The notes under the pieces: generated by a model
The model's input: the letters and a program-made list of their open reading frames with translations, nothing else
Database searches by the model: none
What the model was told of the DNA's origin: nothing
Program-made: the position numbers and the translations under genes
NCBI RefSeq assembly: GCF_000253055.1
Contig: NC_016070.1
Coordinates: 360,001 to 392,000, forward strand
Direction of reading: 5' to 3'
Source: Thermoproteus tenax Kra 1
GTDB lineage: Archaea; Thermoproteota; Thermoprotei; Thermoproteales; Thermoproteaceae
DNA: 32,000 nucleotides
Part shown: piece by piece, positions 4,609 to 25,245 of the stretch
Layout of the letters: each line of letters opens with the position of its first letter
Numbering within the stretch: position 1 is the first letter of the stretch

Positions 4609-4938
4609 TCAGAAGACTAGCGGGATGTAGCCCGCGTTGACGTATAGGGCGATCCTCTCGCCGGCTGGCAACAATTTGACAAGCTTGGACAGCTCTCCGT
4701 CGATCCCCTTGGCCTTCGCATAGTTCACACACGCCGAGTCGATCGCCCCGGTCGCGTTAAGTTTGTCGAAGAACTCTTTGACTTGTCCTTGAAGCTTCAA
4801 CAGCCTCTCCTGGCTAGGCCCGAAGAACACGATCTTCAAGTCCTCGTACCTCCGCGCCTCCACAGACCTCGAGGCTAGGGTCAACGCTAGGTCGGCCCTC
4901 TCGTCTCCGCTCATTATCACGAACAGGACCTTCGCCAT
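4609..4938 (-). CDS. Small DsrE/DsrF-fold protein (putative sulfur-relay protein)
   Basis: 109 aa. The N-terminus KVLFVIMSGD... suggests a Rossmann-like strand. A single conserved-position Cys occurs in ...GAIDSACVNYAKAKGI, matching the pattern seen in the other DsrE-like ORFs here. Confidence 0.5.
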   Translation of the reverse strand: MAKVLFVIMSGDERADLALTLASRSVEARRYEDLKIVFFGPSQERLLKLQGQVKEFFDKLNATGAIDSACVNYAKAKGIDGELSKLVKLLPAGERIALYVNAGYIPLVF

Positions 4939-4969: not shown

Positions 4970-5182
4970 TCAGCCGAGACCTCGCCTGAGCCTGCCGCCG
5001 CCTGCGGCGTCTTGGTTCTTAGTCCACTTAGACAAAAACTGTCTATAACACTCCTTGGAGCAGAACACCCAAGGTTTGTTGACGCAACAGGTCTTGACAA
5101 CAATGCCGGGGCCGTTGATGAGCTTACCGCAGTTGGAGCACCTCGATACAGCGGGCCTCTGCACCTTCAGCTCGAAGGGCAT
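4970..5182 (-). CDS. Small TRASH-type zinc/metal-binding domain protein
   Basis: 70 aa with CSNC-x22-CSKEC, which fits the TRASH pattern C-x2-C-x19-22-C-x3-C. The C-terminal tail is basic. Confidence 0.5.
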   Translation of the reverse strand: MPFELKVQRPAVSRCSNCGKLINGPGIVVKTCCVNKPWVFCSKECYRQFLSKWTKNQDAAGGGRLRRGLG

Positions 5183-9160: not shown

Positions 9161-10458
9161 TTAGGCCATCATCCTGTATATGTCTTCTAGGTCGTAGGCG
9201 ATGGCTCCCTCTCTTCTCTTGAAGCTTCTGGCTACTACAACGGGTACAACGCGGCCGGGCAGGCCCAACTCCTCGACCTTCTCTCTGAGCCCCTGAGCCA
9301 CCTCAGTTGCGTCCACCCCGTCTCTCCACCTCGCCTCCACGGGCACTACGACGCCGTCGCCGACGCCGAGGAGATCTATCTCTCTCGCCTCCCCCCTCTT
9401 AGTCCACCACTGGGGGCCCAGCTTCCTCACCCTAGGCAGGCGGCCGGCGGCCATCTCCCTGACTACGACCTCCCCTGCGATCTCTTCAAAGGTCTTGCCG
9501 AGGTACTGGCTGTACTCCCTCCGTATGTCCTCCACACCGTAGAGACCCTGCTCTATTAGCCAGAGGTTCGGCCCTATGAAGCGGAGCCAGAAGCGGAGGA
9601 AGCCGTCGGCGAGCTCGTATCTGTACCTCCCCCTGCCCAACACAGGCTTCACCTTTCTTACAATGCCCACGACCTCGAGGTTGCGGAGGTACTGCGTTAT
9701 GTCTGTCGACTTAAGCCCTGCGTGGTCTCTTATTTCGCCCATAGTGTTTTTCCCGGCCGCGATCGCCTCAAGTATCTGCCTATAGGTAGAGACGTCCTCG
9801 AACTCGTAGCGGAGGAGGAAGTCCCCCTCGTCGAGGAGGAACGTCCTCTCCCTCAGCTCCCGCTCCAGGAAGTCCCAGAAGGGCTCCTTCACCTTCACCA
9901 TGTAGTAGGGTATCCCGCCGGCAAAGCCGTGGATCTCCACCAGTTCGTGCGGCGGCCTGTCGGGAAAGAACTGTCTGTATTTGAGGAAAGGTATGGGGTC
10001 CACCCTCAACGACGCCGTCCTCCGCCCGTAGAGGGGGCTCTTGTAGGAGAGAACTTTTGAGGTCATGGTGGAGATAGAGGAGCCGGTCAGCACGAGCTTT
10101 AGGTCTGAGTCGGCGAGGACTTCGTCCACCACCGCCTGGAGGATCGACAGGATGGATCTGTCCTCCTCTATTAGGTTTGGGAATTCGTCTATGATGACGA
10201 CGTCGACTCTGTCCCTTAGGTATGTGAAGACAGCCTCCCAGTCGTCGGCGGTTGTCAACACGCCGGGGTCGACCCGCGCCGCGGCCGATTGCCTCTCCCG
10301 ACTGCGAGGTAGTAGACCCTCCGCATGTCCTCCGTGGCCTTTAGGACTAGGGCGGTCTTCCCTATCCTCCCCCTGCCGTATACCACAACTAGTCTGAAGC
10401 CCTCCTCCCGCAGGTCTCTCCTGCGCTTCTCCAGCTCCTCTTCCCTGTCTAAAAATAT
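9161..10458 (-). pseudogene. Archaeal ATPase (Arch_ATPase + DUF234 type), disrupted
   Basis: The C-terminal 366-aa ORF (9161-10261) carries Walker B VVIIDEF and a DUF234-like wHTH tail. The Walker A part (IFLDREEELEKRRRDLREEGFRLVVVYGRGRIGKTALV...) lies upstream in a different frame and ends at the TGA at 10255-10257. Where homologs start MF(V/L)DRE, this copy has ATA. The Walker A to Walker B spacing also looks short. Confidence 0.55.
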
Positions 10459-10506
10459 AACTACGGTTATATAATCAAGGTTATATTTAAAACATAACTC
10501 TGAGCC

Positions 10507-11150
10507 GTGGGGCCGGCCTTGGGGATTCTGGCGTTTCTCTGGTCCACAATAGGGGCCATCGCCTCGCTGAGGAGAGAATACCTCTGGGTAGCCTCCGTCA
10601 GATCGTTTACCGCGCCTCCGGCGGCTTTTGCAACGGGCTAGGCCCGGGAGTGGACGCTTCTGCCGGGCCCCCTTCTCGGCGGCCTCTTCGCGGTCTATCC
10701 AGCGGCGGTTGTATACACGGGGATTGGAAATATACCTCCTCTACACAGCCCCTTCCGGACGACCCTAGCCCCTTGCTCTGTTGGGCGAAAGGCCGATGCG
10801 ATGGAGTGCAAGATGTACCTGTCCTCGCGGCTCTTATGGTCTCCTCAGGCGGGATGTCTGGGGTCGGCTTCGCCACCGGCTTAGCTTCGTACTTCTTCTA
10901 CGGCTTGTACATCGCGGCCGCCAGGTGGCTTGCGGCAGACGGCTGCGTGATGGACGCATCGCCTAGGGCTATGCCCTTTACGCTGGCCGTCATCGTCCCG
11001 GCCCTACCGCTGAATCCAAGCCGCCTATCCTTGAGACCGCCGCTGGAGTGTGCCTCGGCGTATTTGGGACCGCATTGCCCTACATGCTCTTCGCGTTGGC
11101 TGTCTCCAAGTTAGAGGCACCGAAGCCAGAGCTGAGGATTCCCTTCACAG
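10507..11150 (+). pseudogene. Decayed EamA/DMT transporter remnant
   Basis: Transporter-like pieces are scattered over all three + frames: VGPALGILAFLWSTIGAIASL (from 10507, stops at TAG), PLALLGERP, GLASYFFYGLYIAAARWL and LGVFGTALPYMLFALAVSKLEAP. The 3' part is truncated by the convergent merA-like gene. Confidence 0.5.
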
Positions 11151-11184
11151 TTTTTCGACTGATGTGGACGCACAGAAGCCGCCC

Positions 11185-12585
11185 TCAGCCGCCGCAACAG
11201 CTGAGCTTTGTGGGATCTGTGGTGAAGGCAAGCGCGGCGAGCCTAAGCGCCTCGGAGAAGGAGGGGAAGGCTGGTATCCAGTCTGCAATGTCGTCTACCG
11301 TGAGCCCCTTTCGTACTGCCAGGGCGAATATGTTTATGAGCTCCTCAGCGTGTGGAGAAACCACGAGTGCTCCAGCTATCCTGCCCCCTTTTAACCTCAA
11401 CCTCTCCGGATAGGTGTTTATCTTTATGAACCCTCTCGCCCTTCCAGAGGTCCAGGCGGCGGCCGCGTTGTCTATAGTCACAAGCCGACATGCACAGCCG
11501 ACGCCGCTCCTTATCATGTCCTCCTCCCTGAGCCCAACGCTGGCCACCGGCGGATCTGAGAAGACGACCCGCGGGGCCCACATGGCGTCGAACTCGGCGC
11601 TTCCCCCAAGGGCGTTTACAGCCGCGACTACTCCCTGCCTCGCAGCCACGTTCTCTAGATATCTGCCGCCAGGAAGCCCTCCGGTTACGTCCCCAGCAGC
11701 GTATATTCCCGGCACCGAGGTCTCCATACGCCTATTTACCTCTACAGCCCCCTCCGGCGTAAGCTTGAGGAGCCCTCCTAAGTCCTCGACGTTTGGCCGT
11801 CTGCCGGTCGCCACGAAAACGGCCTCGGCCTCAACGGAGACGCCCCCTGCCCTAACCTCGACTCCGTTGTTCTTAACCTCTACAGCCGTAGCCTCGCCCC
11901 TTATTAGCTTCACTCCATCCTCCCTCAGCGCTTCCTCTATGAAGTCCGAGACAAGTGCCTCCTCGTACTTCAGGAGACGGCTTCGGTAAATCACATAGGT
12001 CTCCATGCCCAGCCTGCTCAAGGCTTGCCCGAGCTCCACTGAGATGGCGCCTCCTCCTATGAAGACCACGGAGTTGGGCAGATCCTCTAGGCTGAAGAAC
12101 TCCTCGTTGCTGAAGGCGAGACCTCTCCTCCTCGCCTCCTCAAGCCCCTTTATCTGAGGCCAGACGGCTCTCGCCCCGGTGGCGACCACGATTTTTCTCC
12201 CCACTACTGTCTCGCCGCCTACCTTCACCGCGCCGGGGCCAACTAACATCCCTCTTCCCTCCATGAGCTTGATGTCGTAATAGTCGATGAGGTCCGCGTA
12301 CTTCCTCCTCCTCAGCTCCTCAACGACCGACCTCATATGTGCCATAAGCGCTTTCCCGTCCACCTCGGCCCAACCCCTTATACCTCTGAAGTAGGGGGCT
12401 CTGGCCGCCTTCATAAGCTCGCCCGCCCGCACCAGGTACTTGCTTGGGACGCAACCTACATTGACGCAGGTGCCTCCCAGAGGTCCGTCGTTGATCATAG
12501 CCACGCTGGCGCCCAACTGGGCCGCCTTAATCGCGGCGGCGAAGCCGGCCGACCCTCCGCCTAGAACCACCAGATCAAAGGTCAC
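11185..12585 (-). CDS. Class-I pyridine-nucleotide-disulfide oxidoreductase, mercuric-reductase (MerA core)-like
   Basis: FAD motif VLGGGSAGFAAA and redox-active GGTCVNVGCVPSK are present, with a second dinucleotide fold FIGGGAISVE. The C-terminal Cys pair ...KLSCCGG is characteristic of MerA. There is no N-terminal heavy-metal-associated domain. The gene is only 7 nt downstream of the SelD-like gene. Confidence 0.75.
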   Translation of the reverse strand: MTFDLVVLGGGSAGFAAAIKAAQLGASVAMINDGPLGGTCVNVGCVPSKYLVRAGELMKAARAPYFRGIRGWAEVDGKALMAHMRSVVEELRRRKYADLIDYYDIKLMEGRGMLVGPGAVKVGGETVVGRKIVVATGARAVWPQIKGLEEARRRGLAFSNEEFFSLEDLPNSVVFIGGGAISVELGQALSRLGMETYVIYRSRLLKYEEALVSDFIEEALREDGVKLIRGEATAVEVKNNGVEVRAGGVSVEAEAVFVATGRRPNVEDLGGLLKLTPEGAVEVNRRMETSVPGIYAAGDVTGGLPGGRYLENVAARQGVVAAVNALGGSAEFDAMWAPRVVFSDPPVASVGLREEDMIRSGVGCACRLVTIDNAAAAWTSGRARGFIKINTYPERLRLKGGRIAGALVVSPHAEELINIFALAVRKGLTVDDIADWIPAFPSFSEALRLAALAFTTDPTKLSCCGG

Positions 12586-12592
12586 AGAGGCC

Positions 12593-14317
12593 TTACCCTA
12601 TCTCGAAGTCTGAGTAGGCGCCCGTGTACCCCTCCCATATCACCTCGGCCACTCTGCAGTTGAAGCCGCGGCACAGCTCCTCCACCAGTTTCTTGACCCT
12701 CTCCGCGTCCCCCTCGGCCACCACCTCCACTCTTCCGTCCGGCAGATTCGCCGCATAGCCGGTGAGACCCAACGCCCTAGCCCTGGCTCTGACGATCGGC
12801 CTAAAGCCAACCCCCTGCACCTCCCCCTCCACATAGGCTCTGGCCCTCGCCGGTCTCTCCACCACTCTCGCCAAGCCTCCCAAGACCGGCGCAGTCCCCG
12901 TCAGCTTCTCCCTCAGCCTCCTGCTAGATATGTACTGCAGAGCCTCTTGGGGCACAATCAGCCTCCCGTCGCCCCTCCCGAGGACTCTCCCCACGACGGC
13001 CGGCCTCAGATGGGGGATCTTCGCCAATCTGTCCAACAACGGGTCCAACAAGCTCTTGTGCGCAAAAATCGCTATAGCGCCGTTGGTCCCAGCGGTAGCG
13101 TCGGGCATCACATAGTTCTCTGCGGCGAATCTAGATATATTTGGATCCATGAGGGGGACGTCGAACAGCTCTACATCGACGCTGGACCTCTCGGCCACCT
13201 CTTTGAACACAAAGATGCCCGGCCCCGATACATCGATGGTGGCCGCTATGTGCGACCGCGCATCGAACTTCTCCCCGAGGTCGGGGAGGAAGTCGTATAT
13301 AGCCCTCGCCGCCTCCACGTTCGGAGTAGCCATTATCTCGAGGACCCTCCTCTTGGCTCTCTCGAGATCCTCCAACGGCATGACTCTGGACTCAAAGGAC
13401 TTGAGGAGCGCCTCGTCGGTGTTCACTGCCACGTAGGTTGTGAACAGAGCCAACTCGCCTATGGGCCTCGTGAGGACTATATAGAAGTCCTCGCTGAGCT
13501 TGTCGTAGAACGTCGGAGGCTCCCTATCCAGATGGGCGTAGGCCGTCGCGCCTATGAGCAAATATCCTCTGCCCGGCTGGGGGGCCTCGACGAGCTCCCC
13601 CAACGAGGAGGCGTAGCTCCTAACTCTGGCCTCGAGCGACCTCAGATATTGAGGCGGCGCGTCGTAGACCGGCGCTATCTTTACATCTCTGTATGCCCCC
13701 TTCGTGTAGAGGTCATTCAGAGCGTTGTTTATGGCCACAGCGACTTGCAGAGACGAGTCGAAGTCCTCGGAGGGATCGACGACTTGTATTGTGTCGTTGT
13801 TGGCCAAGATATAGCCCGCGCCTCCCTCGGCTCTCAGGAAGTCCACCATGAAGAACTCTGCGCCCTGCTTCGTGCTCACGATGCTGTGCCCCTTCCCCAG
13901 CCAGACTCTGTGTCTAGAGGAGCCGAGAGCCTTGTAGAGACCTGCGACGTGCTCCGCAAATCTGTCCGGCGAGCCTGCCTTGCCCATATACAGCTGTACC
14001 AACACGACGGCGAGCGTGGGGCTCAGACGCTCGATAACCTCGGGCTCCAGACTGGGGTTCTCTACATCTAAAAAGAAGCGCGCCAGCTCGGCGCGTTCGC
14101 CGGGCATTATGGCCACGTCCTCCCTCGGCGCAATTATCAAATTGAGCCTCTTTATCTCGTCCTTCAACAGCTGCACGGCCGGGTACAATACGTCGTAGAG
14201 GTCCACTTTGACGGAGCAGCCGAGCGACAACGACTCTATGGCTATGCCGGCCTCTCTGTAGAGCCTTACCCTCTCTCTGAACTTCTCCGTCATCGTTTTC
14301 TGACCACTATACGCCAT
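12593..14317 (-). CDS. SelD/PurM-superfamily (selenophosphate-synthetase-like) protein fused to a C-terminal acylphosphatase domain
   Basis: SelD-like motifs are SLGCSVKV (Cys-x-x-Lys, as in the SelD glycine-rich loop), REDVAIM, AINNALNDLYTKG, IVLTRPIGE, TIDVSGPGIF and TAGTNGAIAIF. The C-terminus has both acylphosphatase signatures (VEGEVQGVGFR and GYAANLPDGRVEV). An alternative start at ATG 14291-14293 (MTEKF...) forms an ATGA overlap with the tusA stop. Confidence 0.6.
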   Translation of the reverse strand: MAYSGQKTMTEKFRERVRLYREAGIAIESLSLGCSVKVDLYDVLYPAVQLLKDEIKRLNLIIAPREDVAIMPGERAELARFFLDVENPSLEPEVIERLSPTLAVVLVQLYMGKAGSPDRFAEHVAGLYKALGSSRHRVWLGKGHSIVSTKQGAEFFMVDFLRAEGGAGYILANNDTIQVVDPSEDFDSSLQVAVAINNALNDLYTKGAYRDVKIAPVYDAPPQYLRSLEARVRSYASSLGELVEAPQPGRGYLLIGATAYAHLDREPPTFYDKLSEDFYIVLTRPIGELALFTTYVAVNTDEALLKSFESRVMPLEDLERAKRRVLEIMATPNVEAARAIYDFLPDLGEKFDARSHIAATIDVSGPGIFVFKEVAERSSVDVELFDVPLMDPNISRFAAENYVMPDATAGTNGAIAIFAHKSLLDPLLDRLAKIPHLRPAVVGRVLGRGDGRLIVPQEALQYISSRRLREKLTGTAPVLGGLARVVERPARARAYVEGEVQGVGFRPIVRARARALGLTGYAANLPDGRVEVVAEGDAERVKKLVEELCRGFNCRVAEVIWEGYTGAYSDFEIG

Positions 14318-14535
14318 ACTCCCCTCTCCACTTCCTCTACGGCGAGCACCTCGTGTCCCTCCCGTTTGACCACCGAGGGCACGTTCTCACAGCTGGGAGG
14401 GTTGTCCGTCAAAATCTCCAAGACCGCCCCCGGCTCTATGCTCCTCAGAGCCCTGAGAGTGGCCAGCTGCGGATAGGGGCAGACGTATCCTCTGAGGTCC
14501 AATACGTACCTCTCTCCGGCTCTGACCGCTTGCAC
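14290..14535 (-). CDS. tusA: TusA/SirA-family sulfur carrier protein
   Basis: 81 aa with LDLRGYVCPYP (CPxP active-site motif) followed by EILTDNP. The start is GTG. It is the first gene of the tusA / SelD-like / MerA-like operon. Confidence 0.8.
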   Translation of the reverse strand: MQAVRAGERYVLDLRGYVCPYPQLATLRALRSIEPGAVLEILTDNPPSCENVPSVVKREGHEVLAVEEVERGVWRIVVRKR

Positions 14536-14638: not shown

Positions 14639-15136
14639 TTGTACGTGTTGGCGCAACTCAAGCTGTGCAAGACACAGAGCGTGTTGGACTATAGACTCCT
14701 TCTGTTCTACGACATAGGGGCAAACTACGCAGAGATCTTCAGCAGATCCGGGAGACGCGCCGTTGCCAAAGTAGAGGGGGGCGGAAGGTGTAAGGGGGTC
14801 TCCAGAGAGCTCGCTCTGACCCTCTACCCTGAGCTGGGCTGGGAGTTCTTAGATGTCGAAGCCCCCTTCGATATAAGGCCGACGGACCCCGTCCCAGCCA
14901 CCAGAGTCGTGATGAAGGTTCCGTTTGGAGTAACAGAGGCCGTCGTCAGAGCTCAGCTCAAGGGGTATCCCTTAGCCGAGGGGACTCTAGCGTTGGAAGC
15001 CTTTGGACACATAGAATTCGGAGAGGTCGTGCACGTGGAGCCGACGGAGTACGCGGTTTTGACAGATGACACAAAGCTCCGCCTAGTGGAGGTGCCCGTT
15101 GAAGACGACGTAATAATTTATATGAGAAAATATTGA
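14639..15136 (+). CDS. Hypothetical protein
   Basis: 165-aa ORF with coding-like composition and an uncertain start (TTG at 14639, GTG at 14645). I recognised no motif. Confidence 0.4.
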   Translation: MYVLAQLKLCKTQSVLDYRLLLFYDIGANYAEIFSRSGRRAVAKVEGGGRCKGVSRELALTLYPELGWEFLDVEAPFDIRPTDPVPATRVVMKVPFGVTEAVVRAQLKGYPLAEGTLALEAFGHIEFGEVVHVEPTEYAVLTDDTKLRLVEVPVEDDVIIYMRKY

Positions 15137-15149
15137 AAAAGTCTAAATT

Positions 15150-15584
15150 TTAAATAAATAAAGTGACAGCAGCGTCCTTAGCCTTCTCTAAGAAAGTCGC
15201 CGCGCCGACTACTTCGTCGACGAAATCGGCCAACGCCGATTTGTCTCTTATGCCGAACAACTCCATAGTAGTAGAGCAAGCGTAGATGGTGACTTTCCCC
15301 ATGGATTTAGCTTGAGATAGCAGCTCGTGCCATGCAGGGAGGCCGGCTCTCCCTATTGCCTCACCTACAGCCTGCGCATATTCAGAATACGTCTGTTCCA
15401 CCTTGGGCTGCGCCTTCAACGCGTCCTTTCTTATTGCGTTCAATCCCCAGAATGTAAAGAATATCTCAACTTCCCATCCGCTTGCCGCCGCAGCACTGGA
15501 GAGTATTGCCACTGGATAAAGTTTATCTATTGTACCCGACCATGCAATTATTGCTAATTTATTCTTTTTTTCTATTCTTTCCAT
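15150..15584 (-). CDS. DsrE3-like sulfur-relay protein (DsrE fold, 'peroxiredoxin-like' type)
   Basis: 144 aa with KLAIIAWSGT..., conserved Cys in VTIYACSTTMELFGI, and the tail VGAATFLEKA...TLFI. Confidence 0.65.
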   Translation of the reverse strand: MERIEKKNKLAIIAWSGTIDKLYPVAILSSAAAASGWEVEIFFTFWGLNAIRKDALKAQPKVEQTYSEYAQAVGEAIGRAGLPAWHELLSQAKSMGKVTIYACSTTMELFGIRDKSALADFVDEVVGAATFLEKAKDAAVTLFI

Positions 15585-15616
15585 GTATAAAAGAAAGGGG
15601 TAGGTATATATTAGCT

Positions 15617-15625
15617 TTATTACCA
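15617..15625 (-). promoter_or_regulatory. TGKTAATAA box (TGGTAATAA) upstream of the DsrE3-like gene
   Basis: The 5' T lies 41 nt before ATG 15584 and is followed by an AT-rich TATA-like tract. The box overlaps the stop codon of the upstream dsrE-like gene. Confidence 0.45.
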
Positions 15626-15970
15626 GCTTAATGTTATTTTTGAATCTGCGGCGTACTCATAAAAGCTTGCTATACCCATTATTTTGACCCCTTCGACTAC
15701 TTCATCCTCCTTTATATTAAACGTAGCCGCAGCCGAGGAACAGAGCCACATCTTGCCTCCCATCTCCATTATCTGTTTAAACCTGGACTGAATCTCTTTA
15801 TCGAGCTTCTCAAAGACTTTCTTCTTTACTACATGTGCGCCGTCCAACGTCCAGAAAATTAGCACATCAAAGCCCATGGAGAGAGCCGCCAGCGCATAGC
15901 CCAACATAGTTGAGATACGGGGGGTATCCGCGGGAGGCATTGTGGCCAAGAAGGCTATCTTATCGGCCAT
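15620..15970 (-). CDS. DsrE/DsrF-family sulfur-relay protein
   Basis: 116 aa with KIAFLATMPP..., conserved Cys in KMWLCSSAAATFNI, and tail ...ADSKITLSW. It is adjacent to the DsrE3-like gene. Confidence 0.6.
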   Translation of the reverse strand: MADKIAFLATMPPADTPRISTMLGYALAALSMGFDVLIFWTLDGAHVVKKKVFEKLDKEIQSRFKQIMEMGGKMWLCSSAAATFNIKEDEVVEGVKIMGIASFYEYAADSKITLSW

Positions 15971-16002
15971 GGGAGCACCATGAGTTCCGAGCTATAAAAA
16001 AA

Positions 16003-17453: not shown

Positions 17454-18091
17454 TGGGGGCGGGCCCCGGCGACCCCAAGCTCTTGACCATCAGAGCTAGG
17501 GAGCTGCTCGAGCAAGCCGACGTGGTGGCATACGGCGACCTCGTGCCGGAGGAGGTGGCGAGGATCGCCAAGAGGGCGCGTGTTGTAAAAATTGGCCACA
17601 GGAGGGCGGAGCACGACGCAGCTATAGACGCCCTGATAGAGGAGGCGCGGAGGAGCAACGTGGTGATTCTTAAGAACGGCGACCCGGCCATATTCGGGAG
17701 GGGGATCAAGATATGTAAAAAGGCTAGGGAGAGGGGGGTTCCGTGCGAGGTTGTGCCGGGCGTCAGCTCTTTTACGGCCGCGGCCGCCCTATATCAGATA
17801 GAATTAACCGATGGAGAGGCGTTGCGCCACGTGGCTTTGTTGGCATATCCCAACTTTGGACCGGGCGTTTTGAAGGAGGTCAGAGCCGACACCATCGTAA
17901 TCTTTATGATGGGAGATAGGCTGCCTGAAGTAGCAGGCGTTTTAGCTGAAGAATGCGACCCGGAGAGGGTGTTCTTGTGTGCGGGTGTGACGATAGGCGG
18001 ATATTGCGAGGAGCTCAGCACCGAAGAATTGAGCGCACGAAAGGGCGTCAGACCGGCCCTAGTTATAGCTCAAAAATGTAGAAAGCATTAA
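17438..18091 (+). CDS. cobA: Uroporphyrinogen-III C-methyltransferase (SUMT; CobA / CysG-A type)
   Basis: MPLYVVGAGPGDPKLLTIRA... and VVILKNGDPAIFGRG...VPGVSS are tetrapyrrole methylase signatures. The ATG at 17438 overlaps the dsrN end by 16 nt. The longer track ORF (from 16847) is an out-of-frame run-through of dsrN. Confidence 0.8.
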   Translation: MPLYVVGAGPGDPKLLTIRARELLEQADVVAYGDLVPEEVARIAKRARVVKIGHRRAEHDAAIDALIEEARRSNVVILKNGDPAIFGRGIKICKKARERGVPCEVVPGVSSFTAAAALYQIELTDGEALRHVALLAYPNFGPGVLKEVRADTIVIFMMGDRLPEVAGVLAEECDPERVFLCAGVTIGGYCEELSTEELSARKGVRPALVIAQKCRKH

Positions 18092-18105
18092 TGATTGTTT
18101 TACAC

Positions 18106-18114
18106 TGTTAATAA
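18106..18114 (+). promoter_or_regulatory. TGTTAATAA box upstream of tusA (18144)
   Basis: Perfect box 38 nt before the ATG, followed by TATTTAAAAG at -27 to -18. Confidence 0.55.
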
Positions 18115-18143
18115 ACTATTTAAAAGTATATGACGATGGGGCT

Positions 18144-18380
18144 ATGGAGAAAGTCGCAAAGACTCTCGACGCGAGGGGGAAGTTCTGTCCCATTCCGGTT
18201 ATGGAGACTGCAAAGGCCATAAACGAGGTCAAAGTCGGCGAGGTATTAGAGGTTCTCGCCACCGACCCTGCGGCGGACCCCGACATAAAGGCTTGGGCTA
18301 AAAGGATGGGACACGAAGTGATCTTGTCTGAGAAGACGCCGGAGGGTTATCTAAGAATATTAATAAAAAGATTGAAGTAA
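18144..18380 (+). CDS. tusA: TusA/SirA-family sulfur carrier protein
   Basis: 78 aa with LDARGKFCPIPV (CPxP) followed by EVLATDP. A T5 run follows the stop. Confidence 0.85.
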   Translation: MEKVAKTLDARGKFCPIPVMETAKAINEVKVGEVLEVLATDPAADPDIKAWAKRMGHEVILSEKTPEGYLRILIKRLK

Positions 18381-18389
18381 AACTTTTTG

Positions 18390-18725
18390 CTATACGCAAC
18401 CTGTTGGTTTCGGCGCTCCTGCCACTTTACAAGCGCCGTGGGCAGGCCCCGAGGGGAACAGCTGATATATCTTCTCCAGGCTGAAGCCTGTCTCCTTCGT
18501 GAGCATCTTTATCGGTGGACAAGAGCCGTAGGTCTCCCAGTACTCCCTAAGGTACTTAATTACTTTCCAGTGCTCCTCTGTCATCTGCTGTACGCCTTCA
18601 AGCTCTCTCGCCATCCACTCTGCTATTTTTTCATCCCAGTCCTCCGTGTTCTGCATAAAGCAGTCCTCGTCTAATATAACCTTTTTTCCGTCTACGGTGT
18701 ATTCACCCGGACATTTCACCGGCAT
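18390..18725 (-). CDS. dsrC: DsrC (dissimilatory sulfite reductase gamma subunit / TusE family)
   Basis: 111 aa. The C-terminal arm ...HGACKVAGAPKPTGCV has both conserved cysteines, the penultimate Cys and a Cys 10 residues upstream. The core WDEKIAEWMA...HWKVIKYLREYW is typical of DsrC. Confidence 0.9.
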   Translation of the reverse strand: MPVKCPGEYTVDGKKVILDEDCFMQNTEDWDEKIAEWMARELEGVQQMTEEHWKVIKYLREYWETYGSCPPIKMLTKETGFSLEKIYQLFPSGPAHGACKVAGAPKPTGCV

Positions 18726-18754
18726 GGCCTTCGTGATGCTTTATTTAAAAAATA

Positions 18755-18763
18755 TTATTAACA
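18755..18763 (-). promoter_or_regulatory. TGTTAATAA box upstream of dsrC
   Basis: Perfect box 38 nt before ATG 18725, followed by a T/A-rich tract (TTTAAATA). Confidence 0.55.
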
Positions 18764-18764
18764 C

Positions 18765-19247
18765 TCATTGAGAAATTATATTGCCTTTAATATAGCGAAT
18801 AACCGAGGGAAGAAGCGGAGACAACAGCTCTTGAGGGGTACCTTTGTATAAAGCGTAGAATATCATGATGGGCAGCTCGTCTATTGGAGCTCCGCCTTTA
18901 GCGTATTCTAGATATACATCAAGAAATCTAGCTAAATGTTCTTTATCTATATTCAAATTCTTTCTCAATTTATTCAAAATTAACTCTTGACTGGCACAAT
19001 TATAATAATAACAGACTATCAAGCCCCGTACTGTTGAGGCCAAGAGGTCGCCTCTGTGGCCGTTGGATCTCTCAATGAGACCGTATTTCTCAAGCCTTCT
19101 GACCTTTCTATACACTTGGGAGAAATGATAGTTTAGGTCATTCGCTATCTTATAGGCTGTCGCAGGTCCTCGGGATACTATGTACGACATCACATCTCTC
19201 AGTATCTTATCCCTAGAAAAATCACATAATTCTAATAAATTCAACAT
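18765..19247 (-). CDS. Winged-helix DNA-binding protein (putative regulator), paralog of 28379-29077
   Basis: The HTH-like segment is GPATAYKIANDLNYHFSQVYRKVRRLEKYGLIE. I prefer the ATG at 19245-19247 over the TTG at 19265, because the TATA-like CTTATATAG then lies at -29 to -21. Confidence 0.5.
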   Translation of the reverse strand: MLNLLELCDFSRDKILRDVMSYIVSRGPATAYKIANDLNYHFSQVYRKVRRLEKYGLIERSNGHRGDLLASTVRGLIVCYYYNCASQELILNKLRKNLNIDKEHLARFLDVYLEYAKGGAPIDELPIMIFYALYKGTPQELLSPLLPSVIRYIKGNIISQ

Positions 19248-19303
19248 TGATAGATAAAAATCCAAATCTATATAAGCTCTATTCCATCCGTGCGCCGGGA
19301 ATA

Positions 19304-19567
19304 TTAAGTGGCAGCTCGTTGCGCGAGCGTCGCCGGCCTAGTCGCCATTTTGACCAACGCGCGTGAGCCCACTACGAAGACGTGTGTATAACCTCCGCGT
19401 TCAGACAATATCTTAAATCCACCGATGCTGTCGAGGACTTCGTCCAGAGGCCTACCGTAGTATTTTCGTGGGAACACCACTTTTCCCTCCTTGGCCTTAA
19501 TATACTCCTTTACATCGCATAGACACAGAGTCGACACCACGGTTTCATAGTCCTCTCTGATATACAT
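19304..19567 (-). CDS. Hypothetical protein (87 aa)
   Basis: ORF with an ATG start. It is preceded by a perfect TGTTAATAA box at -40 and a TATA-like tract. I recognised no motif. Confidence 0.4.
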   Translation of the reverse strand: MYIREDYETVVSTLCLCDVKEYIKAKEGKVVFPRKYYGRPLDEVLDSIGGFKILSERGGYTHVFVVGSRALVKMATRPATLAQRAAT

Positions 19568-19598
19568 GGTAACAGCGACGTTATCTTTGTATTAAATT

Positions 19599-19607
19599 TT
19601 ATTAACA
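19599..19607 (-). promoter_or_regulatory. TGTTAATAA box upstream of the 87-aa ORF
   Basis: Perfect box 40 nt before ATG 19567. Confidence 0.5.
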
Positions 19608-19612
19608 AGGCG

Positions 19613-20065
19613 GTGCTAACTTATATTTTTATTCCCATCGATATCTTCTTTGTGATCTCAATTATAGAGGAGATAAAGAGGAGAGTGCAGGCCTACGGCA
19701 TGCCGTGTGGCGCGCCGCCCAATGGGCTGAAGCTCGAGGAGAACTTATACGTCTCTGACGGCTGGGCGATCTACTCTTCACAAGATGGTACTAAATGTCT
19801 CTACATGGGCGAGGTCGCCCAAGCCGTTGCATATGTTGGCAAAGTTGACTGCGTGAAAAAGATCGAGGGGGTCAAGCTCTCTCCTCCTTTTCTAGAGCTC
19901 TATGAAGACGAGGAGTACGCGGTCATATTGGGCGTGTGCGGCACCGATGTGTGCATCCAAGAGTGGAGAGATGAGGCTCCCAATTGTACTTGTATCTCAA
20001 ATTTAAAATTAGATGAATATATTAAAATGGTAAAAATATTAGAGAATTATAATTTGATTGATTAA
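19613..20065 (+). CDS. Hypothetical Cys-rich protein
   Basis: 150-aa ORF with 7 Cys. The start is uncertain (GTG 19613, GTG 19685 or ATG 19700). The 3' end is unusually AT-rich and overlaps the convergent DUF1641 gene by 4 nt. Confidence 0.4.
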   Translation: MLTYIFIPIDIFFVISIIEEIKRRVQAYGMPCGAPPNGLKLEENLYVSDGWAIYSSQDGTKCLYMGEVAQAVAYVGKVDCVKKIEGVKLSPPFLELYEDEEYAVILGVCGTDVCIQEWRDEAPNCTCISNLKLDEYIKMVKILENYNLID

Positions 20066-20502
20066 GTGATATGGGGACAAGATCCTATCTTCTTCAGGAC
20101 TGACATCAGATATCCCAGCCCTCTTTGGATCTCGGGATCTCCAAGGGCGTTGAGCAGACCCCAGAGCCCGATAGGCTTGGAGCCGTCAGCTGTAGCGATC
20201 GCGTTAGTGATACAGTCCACTTTAGAGCTGTCCGCCGATAGGTTCGTGCCTGCTATAAGCGCCACCTCCTGCAGTTTTGAGATTCTCTCCATGAAGTCCT
20301 TCGTGAGCAAACCCTCTGTGATAAACCGGAGCGCCGCTACCGCCTGAAGCAGATCGTCTAGGATGCCGCTGCGTTTGAACTCGAAGAGAGCGTCCACAAG
20401 ATCCTTCACTACATCGATCTTCTCCACTATCTCGAGAAGCGCTTGTTGCGTCTTCTCCTGTTGTAGCAACTCTATCAATTTATCGAGCTTTTCGGAGCTC
20501 AT
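20062..20502 (-). CDS. DUF1641-family protein (accessory protein commonly paired with SQR/NADH-dehydrogenase-like flavoproteins)
   Basis: The C-terminus GLWGLLNALGDPEIQRGLGYLMSVLKKIG fits the DUF1641 pattern. I moved the start to ATG 20500-20502, which forms an ATGA overlap with the sqr stop. Confidence 0.6.
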   Translation of the reverse strand: MSSEKLDKLIELLQQEKTQQALLEIVEKIDVVKDLVDALFEFKRSGILDDLLQAVAALRFITEGLLTKDFMERISKLQEVALIAGTNLSADSSKVDCITNAIATADGSKPIGLWGLLNALGDPEIQRGLGYLMSVLKKIGSCPHIT

Positions 20503-21641
20503 AGCCCGCACCTCATCACAGACCATATAGAGTAGTTGGTCATGTCCTTCAATCTTACAAAGAACCTACTTGGCGGCGGCGGGAACTTTGCAGGGTTCTC
20601 GTAGTTCCATGAGACCATAGTGGCCTCCTCGAAACCTGTCAGAATGAAGCAGATGACCCTTCCGTCGTATCTGGCGTCTGAATGGCCCAACTTCAGCTCG
20701 TCCGCTATTCTGTTTGATACGATCTCGCTCTGGAAGTGTGCAACCGATCCAGCCTTAGGTACAGGCAGATTAGTGGCGTCGCCGAGCGCATACTCAGCGC
20801 CTGTCGCTCCCTGTGCCTGAATCTGGAGCGTGTGTCTGTCGACAGGAACCCACCCCGCCTGATCCCCAATGCCCGATTTGATTACTACGTCGCTGCCGCC
20901 GTGGGGAGGCACTGCCATAATTAGATCGGCCTTTATCTCGCTCGACCCTACGACTTTCCCCTCCTCTATCGAGTTCACTTGGAATTTTGTGTGATATTCG
21001 AAGCCCCACATCGACAAAGTCTCCTCAAGGAATTTGTTCACCTGAGGTTGCGCGTGCAAATGGGGAGCCACTGTGGTGAATATAACCTTGGTCTTAGCTC
21101 TGAGTCCCGTGGCCATAAGGTAGTCGTTTAAAAGCCCGAGAAACTCGTAGGGAGCCACTGGACATTTATATGGTGTAGAGGTGACAGCCACCGCCACAGT
21201 TCCGCCTTTGAATTCTCTCAACATTTCCCTCACCCTCTTGGCGCCCTCGTACGTCCATACGGTCGACCACCATTTGCCGTAGCCGGAGAACGAGCCGACC
21301 TTTACTGTAGCCCCTGTAGCCACCACTAGATAATCATATTTATGTTCTTTTCCTGACTGTGTTATTATTTTCTTATTATTTAAATCTATTTTTGAGACAG
21401 TATCTTTTTCTAATTTTATCAGTGGATTTAGAAGTTTTGATACAGATCTGAACATCACGTCGGGCACCAACTCTTGAAACGGTACATACAAGAACCCGGG
21501 CTGATAGGTCTGGATCTCGTTTTGTTCAATTAATAAGATGGATACGTCGCCTCTCTTGATTTCGCCGTGTAGCTTAGCGGCGAGCTTATTGGCAGTAAAT
21601 ATTCCGCCAACACCGCCTCCAACTATTACAATGGTTTTCAT
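20499..21641 (-). CDS. sqr: Sulfide:quinone oxidoreductase-like FAD-dependent disulfide oxidoreductase
   Basis: The N-terminal FAD fold is KTIVIVGGGVGGIFTANKLA. TSTPYKCPVAPYEF (conserved Cys), a second Cys in GRVICFILTG, and ALGDATNLPVPKAGS are present. Length is 380 aa. Confidence 0.75.
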   Translation of the reverse strand: MKTIVIVGGGVGGIFTANKLAAKLHGEIKRGDVSILLIEQNEIQTYQPGFLYVPFQELVPDVMFRSVSKLLNPLIKLEKDTVSKIDLNNKKIITQSGKEHKYDYLVVATGATVKVGSFSGYGKWWSTVWTYEGAKRVREMLREFKGGTVAVAVTSTPYKCPVAPYEFLGLLNDYLMATGLRAKTKVIFTTVAPHLHAQPQVNKFLEETLSMWGFEYHTKFQVNSIEEGKVVGSSEIKADLIMAVPPHGGSDVVIKSGIGDQAGWVPVDRHTLQIQAQGATGAEYALGDATNLPVPKAGSVAHFQSEIVSNRIADELKLGHSDARYDGRVICFILTGFEEATMVSWNYENPAKFPPPPSRFFVRLKDMTNYSIWSVMRCGL

Positions 21642-21672
21642 AGGACCTTGGCTATTAAGAATTAAAAATAAA

Positions 21673-21681
21673 TTATTAACA
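21673..21681 (-). promoter_or_regulatory. TGTTAATAA box upstream of sqr
   Basis: Perfect box 40 nt before ATG 21641. Confidence 0.55.
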
Positions 21682-21816
21682 CTATTAATGAGAATATTAT
21701 TTTAAATTTCAGAATTATTAAATATTTTAAAAAAGACTTTAAATATATTATAAATATGATTTAACATTGATATATTGTAGTATTTATCTAGTAAATATTT
21801 ATAAAGTATAAAATAA

Positions 21817-22305
21817 CTAGGTCTTAATTGCTTGCAACTTGACGCTACCCTCTAGTCCTCCCTCGGGGAAGTACATGTCCCTAAGCACTCGGAATCCGCA
21901 CTGGGACAACAGCCGGCCCAACCTTGTCTCCTCCGGCGGTGTCCCCCTCTGTAGTTCGGCGTAGGTCTGTCTATCGTCCACATATTCAACGTAGAGGAGG
22001 TCGCCCTTCTCCATATATCTGCCGAAAAGGCAGTAGAGCTCCCTCTCCAAGTCGGTGTTCAACACCTTTATGTTGAACAACTCGGCCCAAGGGGAGTAGT
22101 ACGGCGGTCTCCCCAGAAAGAGCACGGCGTGAGCCACCAGTCGTCCGCCCCTCCATATCTCAAGATATATCTCCTCGGCGAGCCGGCCCCTTTTGCTTTT
22201 AATGACGAAGCGTCTGTCCGACAACAAGTCAGAGAGCACAGAGAGATCGATCTTTCGATAAAAAGGCTCAGTTGAGCGGAGTTGAAGATGCGCTTTCCCC
22301 CACAA
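21817..22305 (-). CDS. Hypothetical protein, last gene of the dsrAB-1 operon
   Basis: 162-aa ORF with a TTG start at 22305 that overlaps the upstream ORF by 38 nt. An alternative GTG lies at 22239. I recognised no family with confidence. Confidence 0.45.
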   Translation of the reverse strand: MWGKAHLQLRSTEPFYRKIDLSVLSDLLSDRRFVIKSKRGRLAEEIYLEIWRGGRLVAHAVLFLGRPPYYSPWAELFNIKVLNTDLERELYCLFGRYMEKGDLLYVEYVDDRQTYAELQRGTPPEETRLGRLLSQCGFRVLRDMYFPEGGLEGSVKLQAIKT

Positions 22306-22753
22306 TCTTTACTGCGTCCACAGGGCCGTACCTAGACATAAGCCATTTTAGATAGCTCTCAGCCTCCTTCTCTAACAACGCTCTTGCTATCCTTGCCCAA
22401 TTGTACATAGCCCAGTGGGGCTCTATGTTCAGCTTGAGAGAGAGGGCGCCTTCAGAGCCGTTGTCAAAACACCTGAGCGGATATAATGTTATAACGATAT
22501 CCAGCTTCATTTTATCCCAAGGCACGTCTCTCAGCGTCCTCTTCGCAGATGTCTCGTCCTCAAGCCTATCGCATGGTACATTTAGGCCGAATCTAATCTT
22601 GGGATAGATGAAGCCCAACATGTACTTCTCGCCAGTGAAATAAGATATTGCAAAAATATCTAGGTCGATTACGTGGAAGGCCTCAGTAGTGCCCGCCTCT
22701 TGTTTTACCAAGGATAGATGGAACTCTTGGGAGGTTACCCTCCTAAATTCCAT
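22268..22753 (-). CDS. Hypothetical protein, third gene of the dsrAB-1 operon
   Basis: 161-aa ORF. Its ATG at 22751-22753 overlaps the dsrB-1 end by 11 nt. I recognised no motif. Confidence 0.5.
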   Translation of the reverse strand: MEFRRVTSQEFHLSLVKQEAGTTEAFHVIDLDIFAISYFTGEKYMLGFIYPKIRFGLNVPCDRLEDETSAKRTLRDVPWDKMKLDIVITLYPLRCFDNGSEGALSLKLNIEPHWAMYNWARIARALLEKEAESYLKWLMSRYGPVDAVKIVGESASSTPLN

Positions 22754-23900
22754 CTCTGAACCTAGGCCATATATCGCCTCTGCTCCTGAAGTGCATATAG
22801 GTGCGCACGTGGTCGGGCACTTTCTGATAGAACGCGTGTACCTTATCCACGCCGACCAAGGATATGAACCTCTGCCACCCTATTCTGTTTATGAAATCTC
22901 CAAGCCTCTCGCCTGGTTGCGCGTGCTCCCTCCACACGTCTATCACCTTTTTGACGACCGCTACGATCTCCTCATAACGCGGCGGATTGGCGGGTAGCCA
23001 CGGTATCAATACGCGGCCCAATCTGGGGCCGCCGCCTGTGTTCGACATCTTTCCTCCCACGACGATCGAAACGCCTACGTCTTGCGGATCGTAGTCGAAG
23101 GCATCGCAGTTCTCCTTACATCTAGCGCAGTTTATGCACTTATCCCCAATAAGTACAAGCTTCACTTTGTCTCCCTCTCTCCTTAGGCTCAACGCGCCTG
23201 TCGGACACACTTGTACTATGAAGACTTGCGACTCTGGTATCTTGGCCAGAGCCTTAGGCGGCGGCAGACAATACGACAACATCTCCTCTCTGATCTTGGG
23301 CGGAGCGCCCCACTGGCCAACTATGACGATATCCATCGCTGTACCTCCCGCGCACATGGCCGGACACCCTGAGACAAACACCCTCAGCTTCGCCGGCAAC
23401 GGCACCTCGCCTGTGAAATAGGGCTTCAGGGCATCGCCAAGAGCCTTACTTATCGATGGCGAGTCCACCACTGCAGTAGTACATGTCAGATACGCCGTAC
23501 ATGAATTTATGCCCCAGAGCGACCGACCCCAGCCGCCGACGGGGAAACCCATCTTCTCGGCCTCCTCCTTGATCTTGAGCGCTTTGTCGAGGGAGTCTGT
23601 CAATATCTCCAAGTTGCCGGCCATAGTGACCCTCATGGCGCCCACTCCAAGTTTGTCCGCAATATCGGCAAACTGATCCAAAGTGTCAGCGCTAAGCCTT
23701 GCGTTGGGCGGCATCGCTATCTTGACCGTGAAGACGTGCTCGCCGGTCGCAGAGATGTGCTCAATGATGCCGTTCTCGTGGAACTTTCTATCGATCCACT
23801 TGCCGTAGTTGCGCTTGATTATATCCGGCAGATATTTATCGAGGTCTATGGGGAATACTTTCTGTAGTCTCGCTGCCCTGGGGTTAGTAGGCGACGTCAT
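22743..23900 (-). CDS. dsrB: Dissimilatory sulfite reductase beta subunit, copy 1
   Basis: The siroheme/[4Fe-4S] motifs CTAYLTC (C-x5-C) and SGCPAMC (C-x3-C) are present, with a ferredoxin insert CPTGA...CINCARCKENC. ATGA coupling to dsrA-1. Confidence 0.9.
   Translation of the reverse strand: MTSPTNPRAARLQKVFPIDLDKYLPDIIKRNYGKWIDRKFHENGIIEHISATGEHVFTVKIAMPPNARLSADTLDQFADIADKLGVGAMRVTMAGNLEILTDSLDKALKIKEEAEKMGFPVGGWGRSLWGINSCTAYLTCTTAVVDSPSISKALGDALKPYFTGEVPLPAKLRVFVSGCPAMCAGGTAMDIVIVGQWGAPPKIREEMLSYCLPPPKALAKIPESQVFIVQVCPTGALSLRREGDKVKLVLIGDKCINCARCKENCDAFDYDPQDVGVSIVVGGKMSNTGGGPRLGRVLIPWLPANPPRYEEIVAVVKKVIDVWREHAQPGERLGDFINRIGWQRFISLVGVDKVHAFYQKVPDHVRTYMHFRSRGDIWPRFRDGI
23527..23600. repeat. 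74-nt inverted repeat with one mismatch, arm A (dsrB-1)
   Basis: Reverse complement of 26809-26882 except for one base (T versus C at 26862). It encodes TDSLDKALKIKEEAEKMGFPVGGWG. Confidence 0.9.
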
Positions 23901-25114: not shown

Positions 25115-25143
25115 AGGACTGCCTCTCCGAAAAATTTTAAGAG

Positions 25144-25152
25144 TTATTAACA
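25144..25152 (-). promoter_or_regulatory. TGTTAATAA box upstream of dsrA-1
   Basis: Perfect box 38 nt before ATG 25114, followed by CTTAAAATTT at about -27 to -18. The extended site GTTAATAAC is a perfect palindrome. Confidence 0.55.
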
Positions 25153-25245
25153 AGTTAAAAGAAATATATTAAAATTGAAAAATCTATAGAATTTAATATT
25201 TTTCTATATATATACATTATTTTACATATTTTAATACACAAATAG

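Follow-up and report, generated by a model that had tools for sequence, protein, structure and literature searches.

Background

In 2014, Li, Jiang, Ni, Liu and Zhang (BMC Genomics 15:908, PMC4210487) described a SelD-like protein family in Sulfolobales and Thermoproteales, the members of which have conserved Cys and Asp/Asn residues, are fused to an acylphosphatase-like domain in every Thermoproteales SelD-like protein that was found, and have SirA-like (i.e. TusA) and 'Prx-like' COG2210 (i.e. DsrE-type) proteins as neighbours, with DSR genes in the vicinity. SelA/SelB, YbbB and YqeB/YqeC were all missing from the Sulfolobales and Thermoproteales genomes examined, and the authors hypothesised that the SelD-like enzyme yields a thiophosphate compound, adding that a selenium role could not be excluded. 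A review of 2022 still cites the function of the SelD-like proteins as the 2014 hypothesis only. The SelD-like/TusA module has in this sense been a 'known unknown' since 2014; it is now seen to be a small family with a wide archaeal spread.

A second described system that matters here is the mercuric reductase MerA. Christakis et al. (2021; PMC8261052) listed the residues by which MerA proteins are recognised, namely (in the numbering of Bacillus RC607) Cys207/Cys212, Tyr264, Phe605 in archaeal or Tyr605 in bacterial proteins, and Cys628/Cys629. They placed the MerAs of Pyrobaculum and Thermoproteus in the most basal MerA lineage, and the crenarchaeal MerAs for which documented activity is named are only those of Sulfolobus solfataricus and Metallosphaera sedula, neither of which falls in that lineage.

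Here, we analyse a stretch of 32 kb from Thermoproteus tenax Kra 1 (the window, in the coordinates of which all positions are given). Three consecutive minus-strand genes in it encode a TusA sulfur carrier, a SelD-like protein fused to an acylphosphatase domain, and a MerA-type flavoprotein disulfide reductase. An earlier reading of this DNA (the original prediction) had taken the three together as an ATP-dependent chalcogen activation or trafficking module within a dsr island, and had implied that the arrangement was novel. We found that the locus is an already published and curated system (Li et al. 2014; NCBIfam model NF038049), the core of which is not new: the family, the fusion, the TusA/DsrE/dsr setting and the thiophosphate idea are all contained in the 2014 paper, and the thio- or selenophosphate proposal of the original prediction therefore re-derives a hypothesis that was published for the same family in the same setting. 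T. tenax itself is not in the genome table of that paper, which lists T. uzoniensis; a MerA-type neighbour is nowhere mentioned in its main text, and the T. tenax genome paper is silent on these genes. The conserved core is tusA plus a SelD-related enzyme of the PurM superfamily, with an acylphosphatase that is either fused to it (Thermoproteales) or encoded by the next gene (many archaea).

Results and discussion

The SelD-like protein and its relation to SelD

The fusion protein, numbered here according to its 574-aa longest open reading frame (ORF), was recognised by NF038049 ('SelD-related putative sulfur metabolism protein') with 669-670 bits against a cutoff of 250 and over positions 1-464 of the 465 of the model, i.e. 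it belongs to this equivalog over the full model length. The N-terminal domain alone matched no other NCBIfam models than those of SelD, and with scores (NF010705, 28.1 bits against a cutoff of 291; TIGR00476, 13.7 bits against a cutoff of 125) that place it outside bona fide SelD. Pfam and PDB searches with the single 574-aa sequence saw the acylphosphatase domain alone. A family alignment of 26 diverse sequences, including ten fused members, formed the basis of a profile and of an AlphaFold2 model. Half of these 26 members (13) matched AIRS_C (PF02769), and the T. tenax protein itself did not at E<1.

The AlphaFold2 model of the fusion protein (predicted local distance difference test, pLDDT, 88.7; predicted template modelling score, pTM, 0.79) is of low confidence in three places only, namely the extreme N-terminus, the loop around Cys34 (residues 32-35) and the interdomain linker; the low pLDDT at residues 32-35 suggests that this loop is flexible. 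When the model was compared with the PDB by means of Foldseek, selenophosphate synthetases came first (human SEPHS1, 3fd5_B, E 2.1e-15; to 1e-12), among them those of Aquifex, Leishmania and E. coli, at target TM scores of 0.6-0.72 (0.72 for 5l16), before HypE (the second-best fold match, E 2e-12), ThiL and PurM. The structures of SelD, HypE, ThiL and PurM together match at E 1e-15 to 1e-9, as expected of the two-domain PurM fold.

The family alignment shows no variation at seven residues, C34, K37, D67, D175, N198, D202 and D362, which pair with C17, K20, D51, D68, N87, D91 and D227 of E. coli SelD on the basis of hhalign, direct comparison and the supplementary alignment of the 2014 paper. 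The hhalign comparison of the family profile with E. coli SelD sets N198/D202 opposite N87/D91 and D362 opposite D227, and direct comparison aligns GC34SVK37V with GC17GCK20I, RED67VAI with RDD51AAV and NND175TIQVVDPSEDFDS with TTD68FFMPIVDNPFDFG. hhalign sets E. coli D68 opposite D159; D159 and D175 are both conserved, and the local sequence (NNDT versus TTDFF) favours D175 as the probable equivalent of D68. For the genome context, 80 loci (denoted by L numbers) were fetched from species-representative genomes, all ORFs up to 6 kb away from the SelD-like gene were clustered without prior labels, and counts are given out of 84 loci. The loop GC[AS]VKVD was found in 83 of these.

The motifs that the original prediction had quoted, namely LGCSVK (C34, K37), NALNDLY (198), LTRPIGE (282), DVSGPG (362) and TNGAIAIF (411), are all present, and its placing of the protein in the SelD/PurM superfamily, its parallel with the Cys-x-x-Lys loop of E. 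coli SelD (same spacing) and the structure prediction that it had called for all held up. Membership of SelD at the sequence level was rejected, as the scores are far under the SelD cutoffs and the profile found no SelD in the PDB at E<=10, and the relationship consequently rests on the fold, the residues and weak matches to hidden Markov models (HMMs). In short, the middle protein is a PurM-superfamily enzyme that has SelD as its nearest characterised relative and lies outside SelD proper.

The acylphosphatase domain: fused or next door

A complete C-terminal acylphosphatase domain had been predicted, and it is indeed there: PF00708 is matched with 75 bits against a cutoff of 22.5, both signatures occur (VQGVGFR from residue 500 and GYAANLPDG from residue 520), and the catalytic residues R506 and N524 are conserved in all ten fused members of the alignment. 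The best PDB matches of the domain are archaeal acylphosphatases (about E 4e-15), and the N-terminal domain of HypF was matched at E 1e-5.

All 41 homologue clusters of 562-586 aa, which stem from Pyrobaculum, Thermoproteus, Thermocladium, Vulcanisaeta and Caldivirga, have the acylphosphatase domain, and the shorter members (449-493 aa; Sulfolobales and further orders) are without it, ending just short of the linker (residues 476-485). The fused form was found in at least 20 of the 84 loci, exclusively in Thermoproteales. In 26 loci a stand-alone acylphosphatase gene is located directly downstream on the same strand, with a median gap of 26 nt. Because the stand-alone gene follows an unfused SelD-like gene elsewhere, the partnership between the two activities is older and wider than the Thermoproteales fusion. 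In total, about 48 of the 84 loci have an acylphosphatase, fused or unfused, and about 36 have no adjacent one. The stand-alone proteins are about 98 aa long (e.g. 11419-11715 in L028; loci L027-L079) and occur in Desulfurococcales, Acidilobaceae, Pyrodictiaceae, Ignisphaera, Methanomethylicia and others.

The occurrence of the acylphosphatase as a separate gene immediately downstream in many non-Thermoproteales genomes would also fit a fusion that is an artefact of assembly or of a frameshift that merged two genes. This was rejected and has practically no chance of being true: a continuous ORF is found in at least 20 independent genomes or metagenome-assembled genomes (MAGs) from five genera, the ORF in the window is unbroken, the AlphaFold2 model consists of two folded domains with a short linker between them, and Li et al. 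(PMC4210487) found the fusion in all their Thermoproteales SelD-like proteins. The survey of related genomes that had been proposed as a check thus yields a fusion that is genuine and conserved.

TusA, other neighbours and the spread of the family

The first gene product has the C19-P-Y-P motif of the TusA/SirA family and scores 88 bits against the PF01206 cutoff of 28.6; its best NCBIfam match is the YedF model NF008242 (67 bits, below the cutoff of 79). TusA is the near-universal partner of the SelD-like gene, as it was found in 70 of the 84 loci at a median gap of 40 nt. Other neighbours are a YeeE/YedE permease (PF04143, 'Sulf_transp'; 27/84), a two-domain rhodanese (22/84) and a DsrE2-like protein (14/84), the latter being recurrent, not universal. 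Within 6 kb of the T. tenax SelD-like gene no YeeE/YedE permease gene was found.

An exhaustive profile search of 1.84 billion representative proteins yielded 177 clusters at 50% identity (E<=1e-3). The distant full-length members retain the Cys...Lys loop and the weak tail of the search consists of true SelDs, and with no more than 177 clusters the family is therefore small, sharply bounded and sister to SelD. Its spread is much wider than the Sulfolobales and Thermoproteales of the 2014 report, and extends to Desulfurococcales, Acidilobaceae, Pyrodictiaceae, Ignisphaera, Thermofilaceae, Thaumarchaeota (Nitrososphaerales and Nitrosopumilales among them), Hydrothermarchaeales, Methanomethylicia and Geothermarchaeota, as well as to Halobacteria MAGs and two bacterial MAGs (an Acidobacteriota contig of 406 kb and a Bipolaricaulota MAG). 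The gene order in Thaumarchaeota is SelD-like, tusA and rhodanese with a YeeE/YedE permease nearby. Loci that illustrate the spread beyond the two orders of 2014 are L040-L086 (e.g. 2122-8291 in L073), L033 and L085.

The presence of the gene in aerobic ammonia oxidisers argues against a role limited to dissimilatory sulfur reduction, of the kind suggested in 2014, and a biosynthetic role in sulfur mobilisation would be at least as plausible. The occurrence in Thaumarchaeota and other archaea, the frequent separate acylphosphatase and the recurrent YeeE/YedE and rhodanese neighbours are what is new here, and this is an incremental addition.

Layout of the T. tenax operon

The three minus-strand ORFs are tightly packed, in agreement with the original prediction (Table 1). 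The stop codon of tusA (TGA, 14292-14290) overlaps an in-frame ATG (14293-14291) as ATGA, and the stop of the fusion gene (TAA, 12595-12593) is separated by 7 nt (12592-12586) from the GTG start of the reductase gene at 12585; both junctions had been predicted and can be read in the sequence. Homologues have their start where ATG 14293 is located and a database protein of 99% identity has a length of 566 aa, for which reason the true fusion product is probably a protein of 566 aa that starts at this ATG and not the 574-aa longest ORF. From the 7-nt spacing it is likely that the reductase gene is co-transcribed with the fusion gene in T. tenax.

Table 1. Features of the tusA/SelD-like/merA operon and its upstream neighbours (window coordinates)
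Feature	Position	Strand	Remarks
tusA	14290..14535	(-)	81-aa TusA/SirA-family sulfur carrier, CPxP motif Cys19; PF01206 E 3.2e-25
SelD-like::acylphosphatase fusion gene	12593..14317	(-)	longest ORF 574 aa; NF038049 669 bits
SelD-like (PurM-superfamily) domain, residues 11-473	12899..14287	(-)	NF038049, Foldseek
Cys34-Ser-Val-Lys37 loop	14207..14218	(-)	counterpart of E. coli SelD Cys17-x-x-Lys20
Interdomain flexible linker, residues 476-485	12863..12892	(-)	pLDDT <50 in AlphaFold2 model
Acylphosphatase domain, residues 493-573	12599..12841	(-)	PF00708 E 4.7e-21; Arg506 (VQGVGFR), Asn524 (GYAANLPDG)
merA-type class-I flavoprotein disulfide reductase gene	11185..12585	(-)	466 aa; TIGR02053 531 bits
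Two DsrE-family genes upstream of the operon	15150-15584, 15620-15970	(-)	PF13686 E 2e-27, PF02635 E 1e-23

The reductase as a predicted MerA of the basal lineage

The reductase passes the cutoff (454 bits) of the MerA equivalog TIGR02053, and the next-best model, that of lipoamide dehydrogenase, gives 307 bits and stays below its cutoff of 409, as do the other class-I models. Its best PDB matches are all MerA structures, namely 5x1y, 4ywo (Metallosphaera sedula, E 3e-77) and 1zk7 (Tn501), and the protein is 100% identical to NCBI 'mercury(II) reductase [Thermoproteus tenax]'. The predicted motifs GGTCVNVGC (C40/C45) and SCCGG (C463/C464) are in place, and alignments to 5x1y (offset 85) and 4ywo identify the residues listed by Christakis et al. 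as C40/C45, Y96 (=Y264), F440 (=the archaeal F605) and C463/C464. The MerA-type call on the flavoprotein hence agrees with the equivalog cutoff and with every published sequence criterion, and to judge from these the downstream gene encodes a mercuric reductase of the MerA family, and within it of the basal lineage that is found in Thermoproteaceae.

The gene is not placed in a mer operon (merR plus merH/TRASH in archaea; merT/P in bacteria), since no mer gene is adjacent to it. As had been noted earlier, a TRASH protein is encoded some 6 kb away: a TRASH-like ORF of 70 aa is located at 4970-5182 (-) and matches PF08394 with E 4.7e-4, which is below the cutoff. It adjoins a 109-aa ORF (4609-4938) without a Pfam match, the protein of which is 48% identical to that of the gene immediately downstream of merA in L091 (6953-7285), and which adjoins merA in L010 as well (17712-18035). 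The small genes that are likely to be associated with mer thus seem to be dispersed in T. tenax, at about 6 kb from merA.

The genomic neighbourhood of merA

Nine MerA contexts of Thermoproteaceae were compared. In two of these merA directly follows the SelD-like gene, i.e. in T. tenax and in a metagenomic Thermoproteaceae contig (L091, 99-nt gap); in two it is located downstream with a DsrE-like and a YHS gene in between (the P. arsenaticum/oguniense-type genomes L088/L089 and P. oguniense L014); in two it is found at 6.7 kb (L010) or about 8 kb (P. aerophilum) from the SelD-like gene, beside an SQR-like/DUF1641 gene pair; and in three there is no SelD-like gene in the fetched flank (L090, 7 kb on each side; L093 and L094, 10 kb on each side). 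No close MerA homologue (>=40% identity) was found beside the SelD-like gene in other orders, the lone match (43%) being encoded on the opposite strand at about 2 kb in an unclassified Thermoproteota MAG (L043). Other close relatives have a DsrE gene, a second tusA, a catalase gene or a DNA ligase gene in the downstream position. A Caldivirga flavoprotein encoded 2 kb from the SelD-like gene was rejected as a MerA orthologue, since it is of the single-Cys CoADR/NADH-oxidase type and shows 31% local identity.

We rejected the trio as a general conserved unit, since merA is adjacent only in some Thermoproteaceae. The core of the proposed chalcogen module, i.e. tusA and the SelD-like/acylphosphatase protein, stood (compare the TusA count above), whereas MerA as its conserved third part did not, being absent from that position in all other lineages. 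For the same reason MerA is to be seen as an accessory and not as core, and with good confidence we regard it as such rather than as an obligate partner.

The genes that recur around MerA encode a DsbH-like thioredoxin-domain protein, YHS, a Cu-type P-ATPase, rhodanese, DsrE, TusA and AprAB/DsrC. Of the immediate neighbours of merA in Pyrobaculum and Thermoproteus, the DsbH-like protein (661-667 aa, PF03190) is the most consistent one (L088 8744-10729; L014 14497-16482; L093 7967-9964; L094 7939-9942), and no copy of it was found by tblastn in the T. tenax window. Genes related to soft (thiophilic) metals recur after or near the tusA-selDL operon or merA in Thermoproteaceae (L006/L017 7698-10546; L088 6818-8395; L093 14269-18336; L094 1-3435). 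In Thermoproteus sp. AZ2, for instance, a second tusA is followed by genes for YHS and an HMA P-type ATPase; Pyrobaculum has YHS-merA; and a group of multicopper oxidase, YHS and ATPase genes is found close to merA. It seems that genes for sulfur trafficking and for resistance to Cu/Hg are located in one and the same island. In Pyrobaculum oguniense TE7 (L014) merA appears to be split into the overlapping ORFs 12763-13122 and 13106-14152 (together 12763-14152), which suggests a frameshift and could reflect a pseudogene or a sequencing error.

Proposed mechanism and its alternatives

The identity and the architecture of the locus are hardly open to doubt. The overall reading that we favour, with somewhat better than even confidence, is that it represents the T. 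tenax copy of the published SelD-like sulfur module, with merA as an accessory. The original prediction of a thio- or selenophosphate type of chalcogen activation by the core is a reasonable one in view of the fold, the residues and the TusA partner; formation of thiophosphate by the SelD-like enzyme in particular, which is extrapolated from fold and residues, is put forward tentatively, at rather less than even confidence. In such a scheme, the mobile loop with Cys34 and Lys37 would receive sulfide or sulfane sulfur from Cys19 of TusA, after which the sulfur would be phosphorylated in the SelD-type Asp/Asn-Mg-ATP site to give an activated donor of the thiophosphate type. The acylphosphatase domain, in which Arg506 and Asn524 are retained, may then process a phospho-anhydride-like intermediate or by-product. 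The merA gene lies in the same sulfur/soft-metal island and is probably co-transcribed in T. tenax through the local gene arrangement. If thiophosphate were truly made, this would be an ATP-activated sulfur donor without precedent in biology, with a bearing on the divergence of selenium and sulfur metabolism.

Several points weigh against this account. The sequence likeness to SelD is weak (hhalign probability 52%), and the profile of 26 sequences, when compared with PDB sequences, found no SelD at E<=10 and gave marginal matches to HypE (E 0.059) and PurM (E 0.3); because of this weak similarity, substrate and product are extrapolated from fold and residues. A simple SelD-type reaction does not account for the acylphosphatase. 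A literature search for biochemistry or genetics of any member of the family found only the 2014 paper and the 2022 review, and no experimental study. The 7-nt gap is the sole basis for the inferred co-transcription of merA. Finally, MerA is found within 8 kb of the SelD-like gene in 6 of the 9 Thermoproteaceae contexts despite rearrangement, which exceeds what random placement in a 2-Mb genome would give; shared ancestry can explain this proximity.

The last point is also an argument for an obligate trio, in which the reductase would supply reduced S or Se (e.g. from persulfide or polysulfide) or would recycle the thiols of Cys34 and TusA. The 7-nt gap, with the co-transcription that it suggests, the same tusA-selDL-merA order in the independent metagenomic contig L091, and the rhodanese, DsrE, TusA and AprAB neighbours of other MerA orthologues point in the same direction, as does the fact that the basal MerA lineage (Pyrobaculum, Thermoproteus, Thermofilum, Aeropyrum) is not among the taxa with Hg(II) reductase activity documented in PMC8261052. 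We nevertheless consider an obligate trio unlikely, since the reductase is missing near almost all of the 84 SelD-like loci, close relatives included, three of its orthologues have no SelD-like gene in their fetched flanks, every MerA-specific feature is present in it (the C-terminal Cys pair and Y264/F605 among them), and a YHS metal-binding gene directly precedes merA in the P. arsenaticum/oguniense group, in a manner reminiscent of merH-merA. A related and similarly doubtful idea is that the basal MerA of Thermoproteaceae is tied to sulfur trafficking instead of, or besides, Hg detoxification, by reducing persulfides bound to TusA/DsrE, polysulfide, or Hg-(poly)sulfide complexes taken in along with sulfur. 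If true, this would explain why merA has been kept within the dsr/apr/TusA/SelD-like island, with its probable co-transcription with tusA-selDL in T. tenax; MerA might then descend from a sulfur-handling disulfide reductase and the SelD-like module would gain a redox partner.

Two further alternatives concern the core itself. The enzyme, which among characterised proteins is closest to SelD and retains every catalytic residue of it, might make selenophosphate to serve an unrecognised Se trait or detoxification, TusA then taking the part of YedF; the selenium-linked YedF model is the best NCBIfam match of TusA, the recurrent YeeE/YedE permeases resemble the bacterial YedE-YedF-SelD association, and Li et al. 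left this option open (PMC4210487). Against it, Li et al. found none of the known Se traits in the Sulfolobales and Thermoproteales carriers (PMC4210487), the proteins form a separate clade far below the SelD cutoffs and the neighbours are sulfur genes (DsrE, rhodanese, dsr), and we judge a selenium substrate improbable. We attach even less weight to an acyl-phosphate-dependent variant (Model 1 of Li et al.) or a HypE/HypF-like one, in which an acyl phosphate such as carbamoyl or acetyl phosphate, bound by the acylphosphatase domain, would donate the phosphoryl or acyl group, and an intermediate held on a Cys would be modified by the PurM-like domain. Such a variant would give meaning to an acylphosphatase association that is ancient and conserved, fused or unfused, in more than half of the loci, and it fits the similarity to the N-terminal domain of HypF and the rank of HypE among the fold matches. 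Yet the 26-sequence alignment has no conserved C-terminal Cys of the HypE type in the SelD-like domain, the conserved Cys being that of the N-terminal SelD-type loop; Pfam and NCBIfam detected no YrdC or Kae1-like carbamoyl-transfer domains; the Asp/Asn set that ligates ATP is intact; and over a third of the loci are without an adjacent acylphosphatase.

The surrounding dsr island

The dsr-island setting of the trio was correctly perceived. The window contains two dsrAB-like pairs, dsrC, dsrM and dsrK, at least five DsrE-family genes, a gene for a DsrN-like amidase, and sirohaem/HemD genes. The two dsrA/dsrB-like pairs of sirohaem sulfite reductase genes are divergent and back to back (22743-25153 (-) and 25286-27633 (+)). 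NIR_SIR and the ferredoxin-like half domain were found in all four genes, the first subunit of the second pair scoring lower (NIR_SIR E 1e-18), and one of the two pairs may be a paralogue or may encode a Dsr-like enzyme with a function of its own.

Divergent from tusA there is an ORF of 165 aa (14639-15136 (+)) without a Pfam match, which is kept near the SelD-like gene in P. aerophilum (L001, 60% identity) and in a Thermoproteales MAG (L015, 52%). The stretch of about 900 nt on the 3' side of merA (10262-11184) has no convincing gene, only low-complexity Pro/Arg/Gly-rich ORFs on both strands without a family match, and may represent either the remains of a gene or an extended intergenic stretch. 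The island is mosaic in composition, with a G+C content of 0.57-0.62 across the tusA-selDL-merA operon and the sirohaem genes, and of 0.42-0.50 at 15001-16000 and 18001-22000 (DsrE genes, dsrC, and SQR-like, DUF1641 and DUF1122 genes). The 32-kb window has no tRNA and no Rfam element at gathering thresholds (SECIS-type RNAs included), and scans of it for sigma-70 promoters and terminators stayed at chance level, with models that are uninformative for an archaeal host.

Comparison with known systems

Among the described systems, archaeal MerA (Saccharolobus solfataricus, Metallosphaera sedula) compares directly with the T. tenax reductase, which likewise is without an NmerA domain and has the same key residues; the T. 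tenax gene differs in having no adjacent merR/merH and in its position 7 nt behind a sulfur-trafficking operon. The bacterial YedE-YedF-SelD and YeeE-YeeD/TsuAB (thiosulfate uptake) systems are built from the same parts that archaeal SelD-like loci combine, i.e. a TusA-family protein, a PF04143 permease and a rhodanese. In T. tenax the partners are instead TusA, DsrE proteins and a dsr island. In HypE/HypF, too, an acylphosphatase domain goes together with an ATP-dependent enzyme of the PurM superfamily, which works on a group bound to Cys, but the C-terminal Cys of HypE and the Zn-finger, YrdC and Kae1-like domains of HypF are not present in the T. tenax protein.

SelD/SEPHS resembles the T. 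tenax protein in the Cys-x-x-Lys loop of a flexible N-terminus and in the Asp/Asn ligands, and the likeness includes a TusA/YedF-type partner as well as YedE-type permeases near family members; the SelD-like domain of T. tenax is some 130 residues longer (about 470 versus about 340 aa) and has the acylphosphatase as an additional partner. With the SelD-like family of Li et al. 2014 (NF038049), finally, the T. tenax core agrees in every respect tested. The T. tenax window hence adds nothing fundamentally new; what it offers is a cultivable organism with the operon and an attached merA. Hypotheses for biochemistry are sharpened by the broader spread of the family and by the YeeE/YedE, rhodanese and stand-alone acylphosphatase genes that recur beside it.

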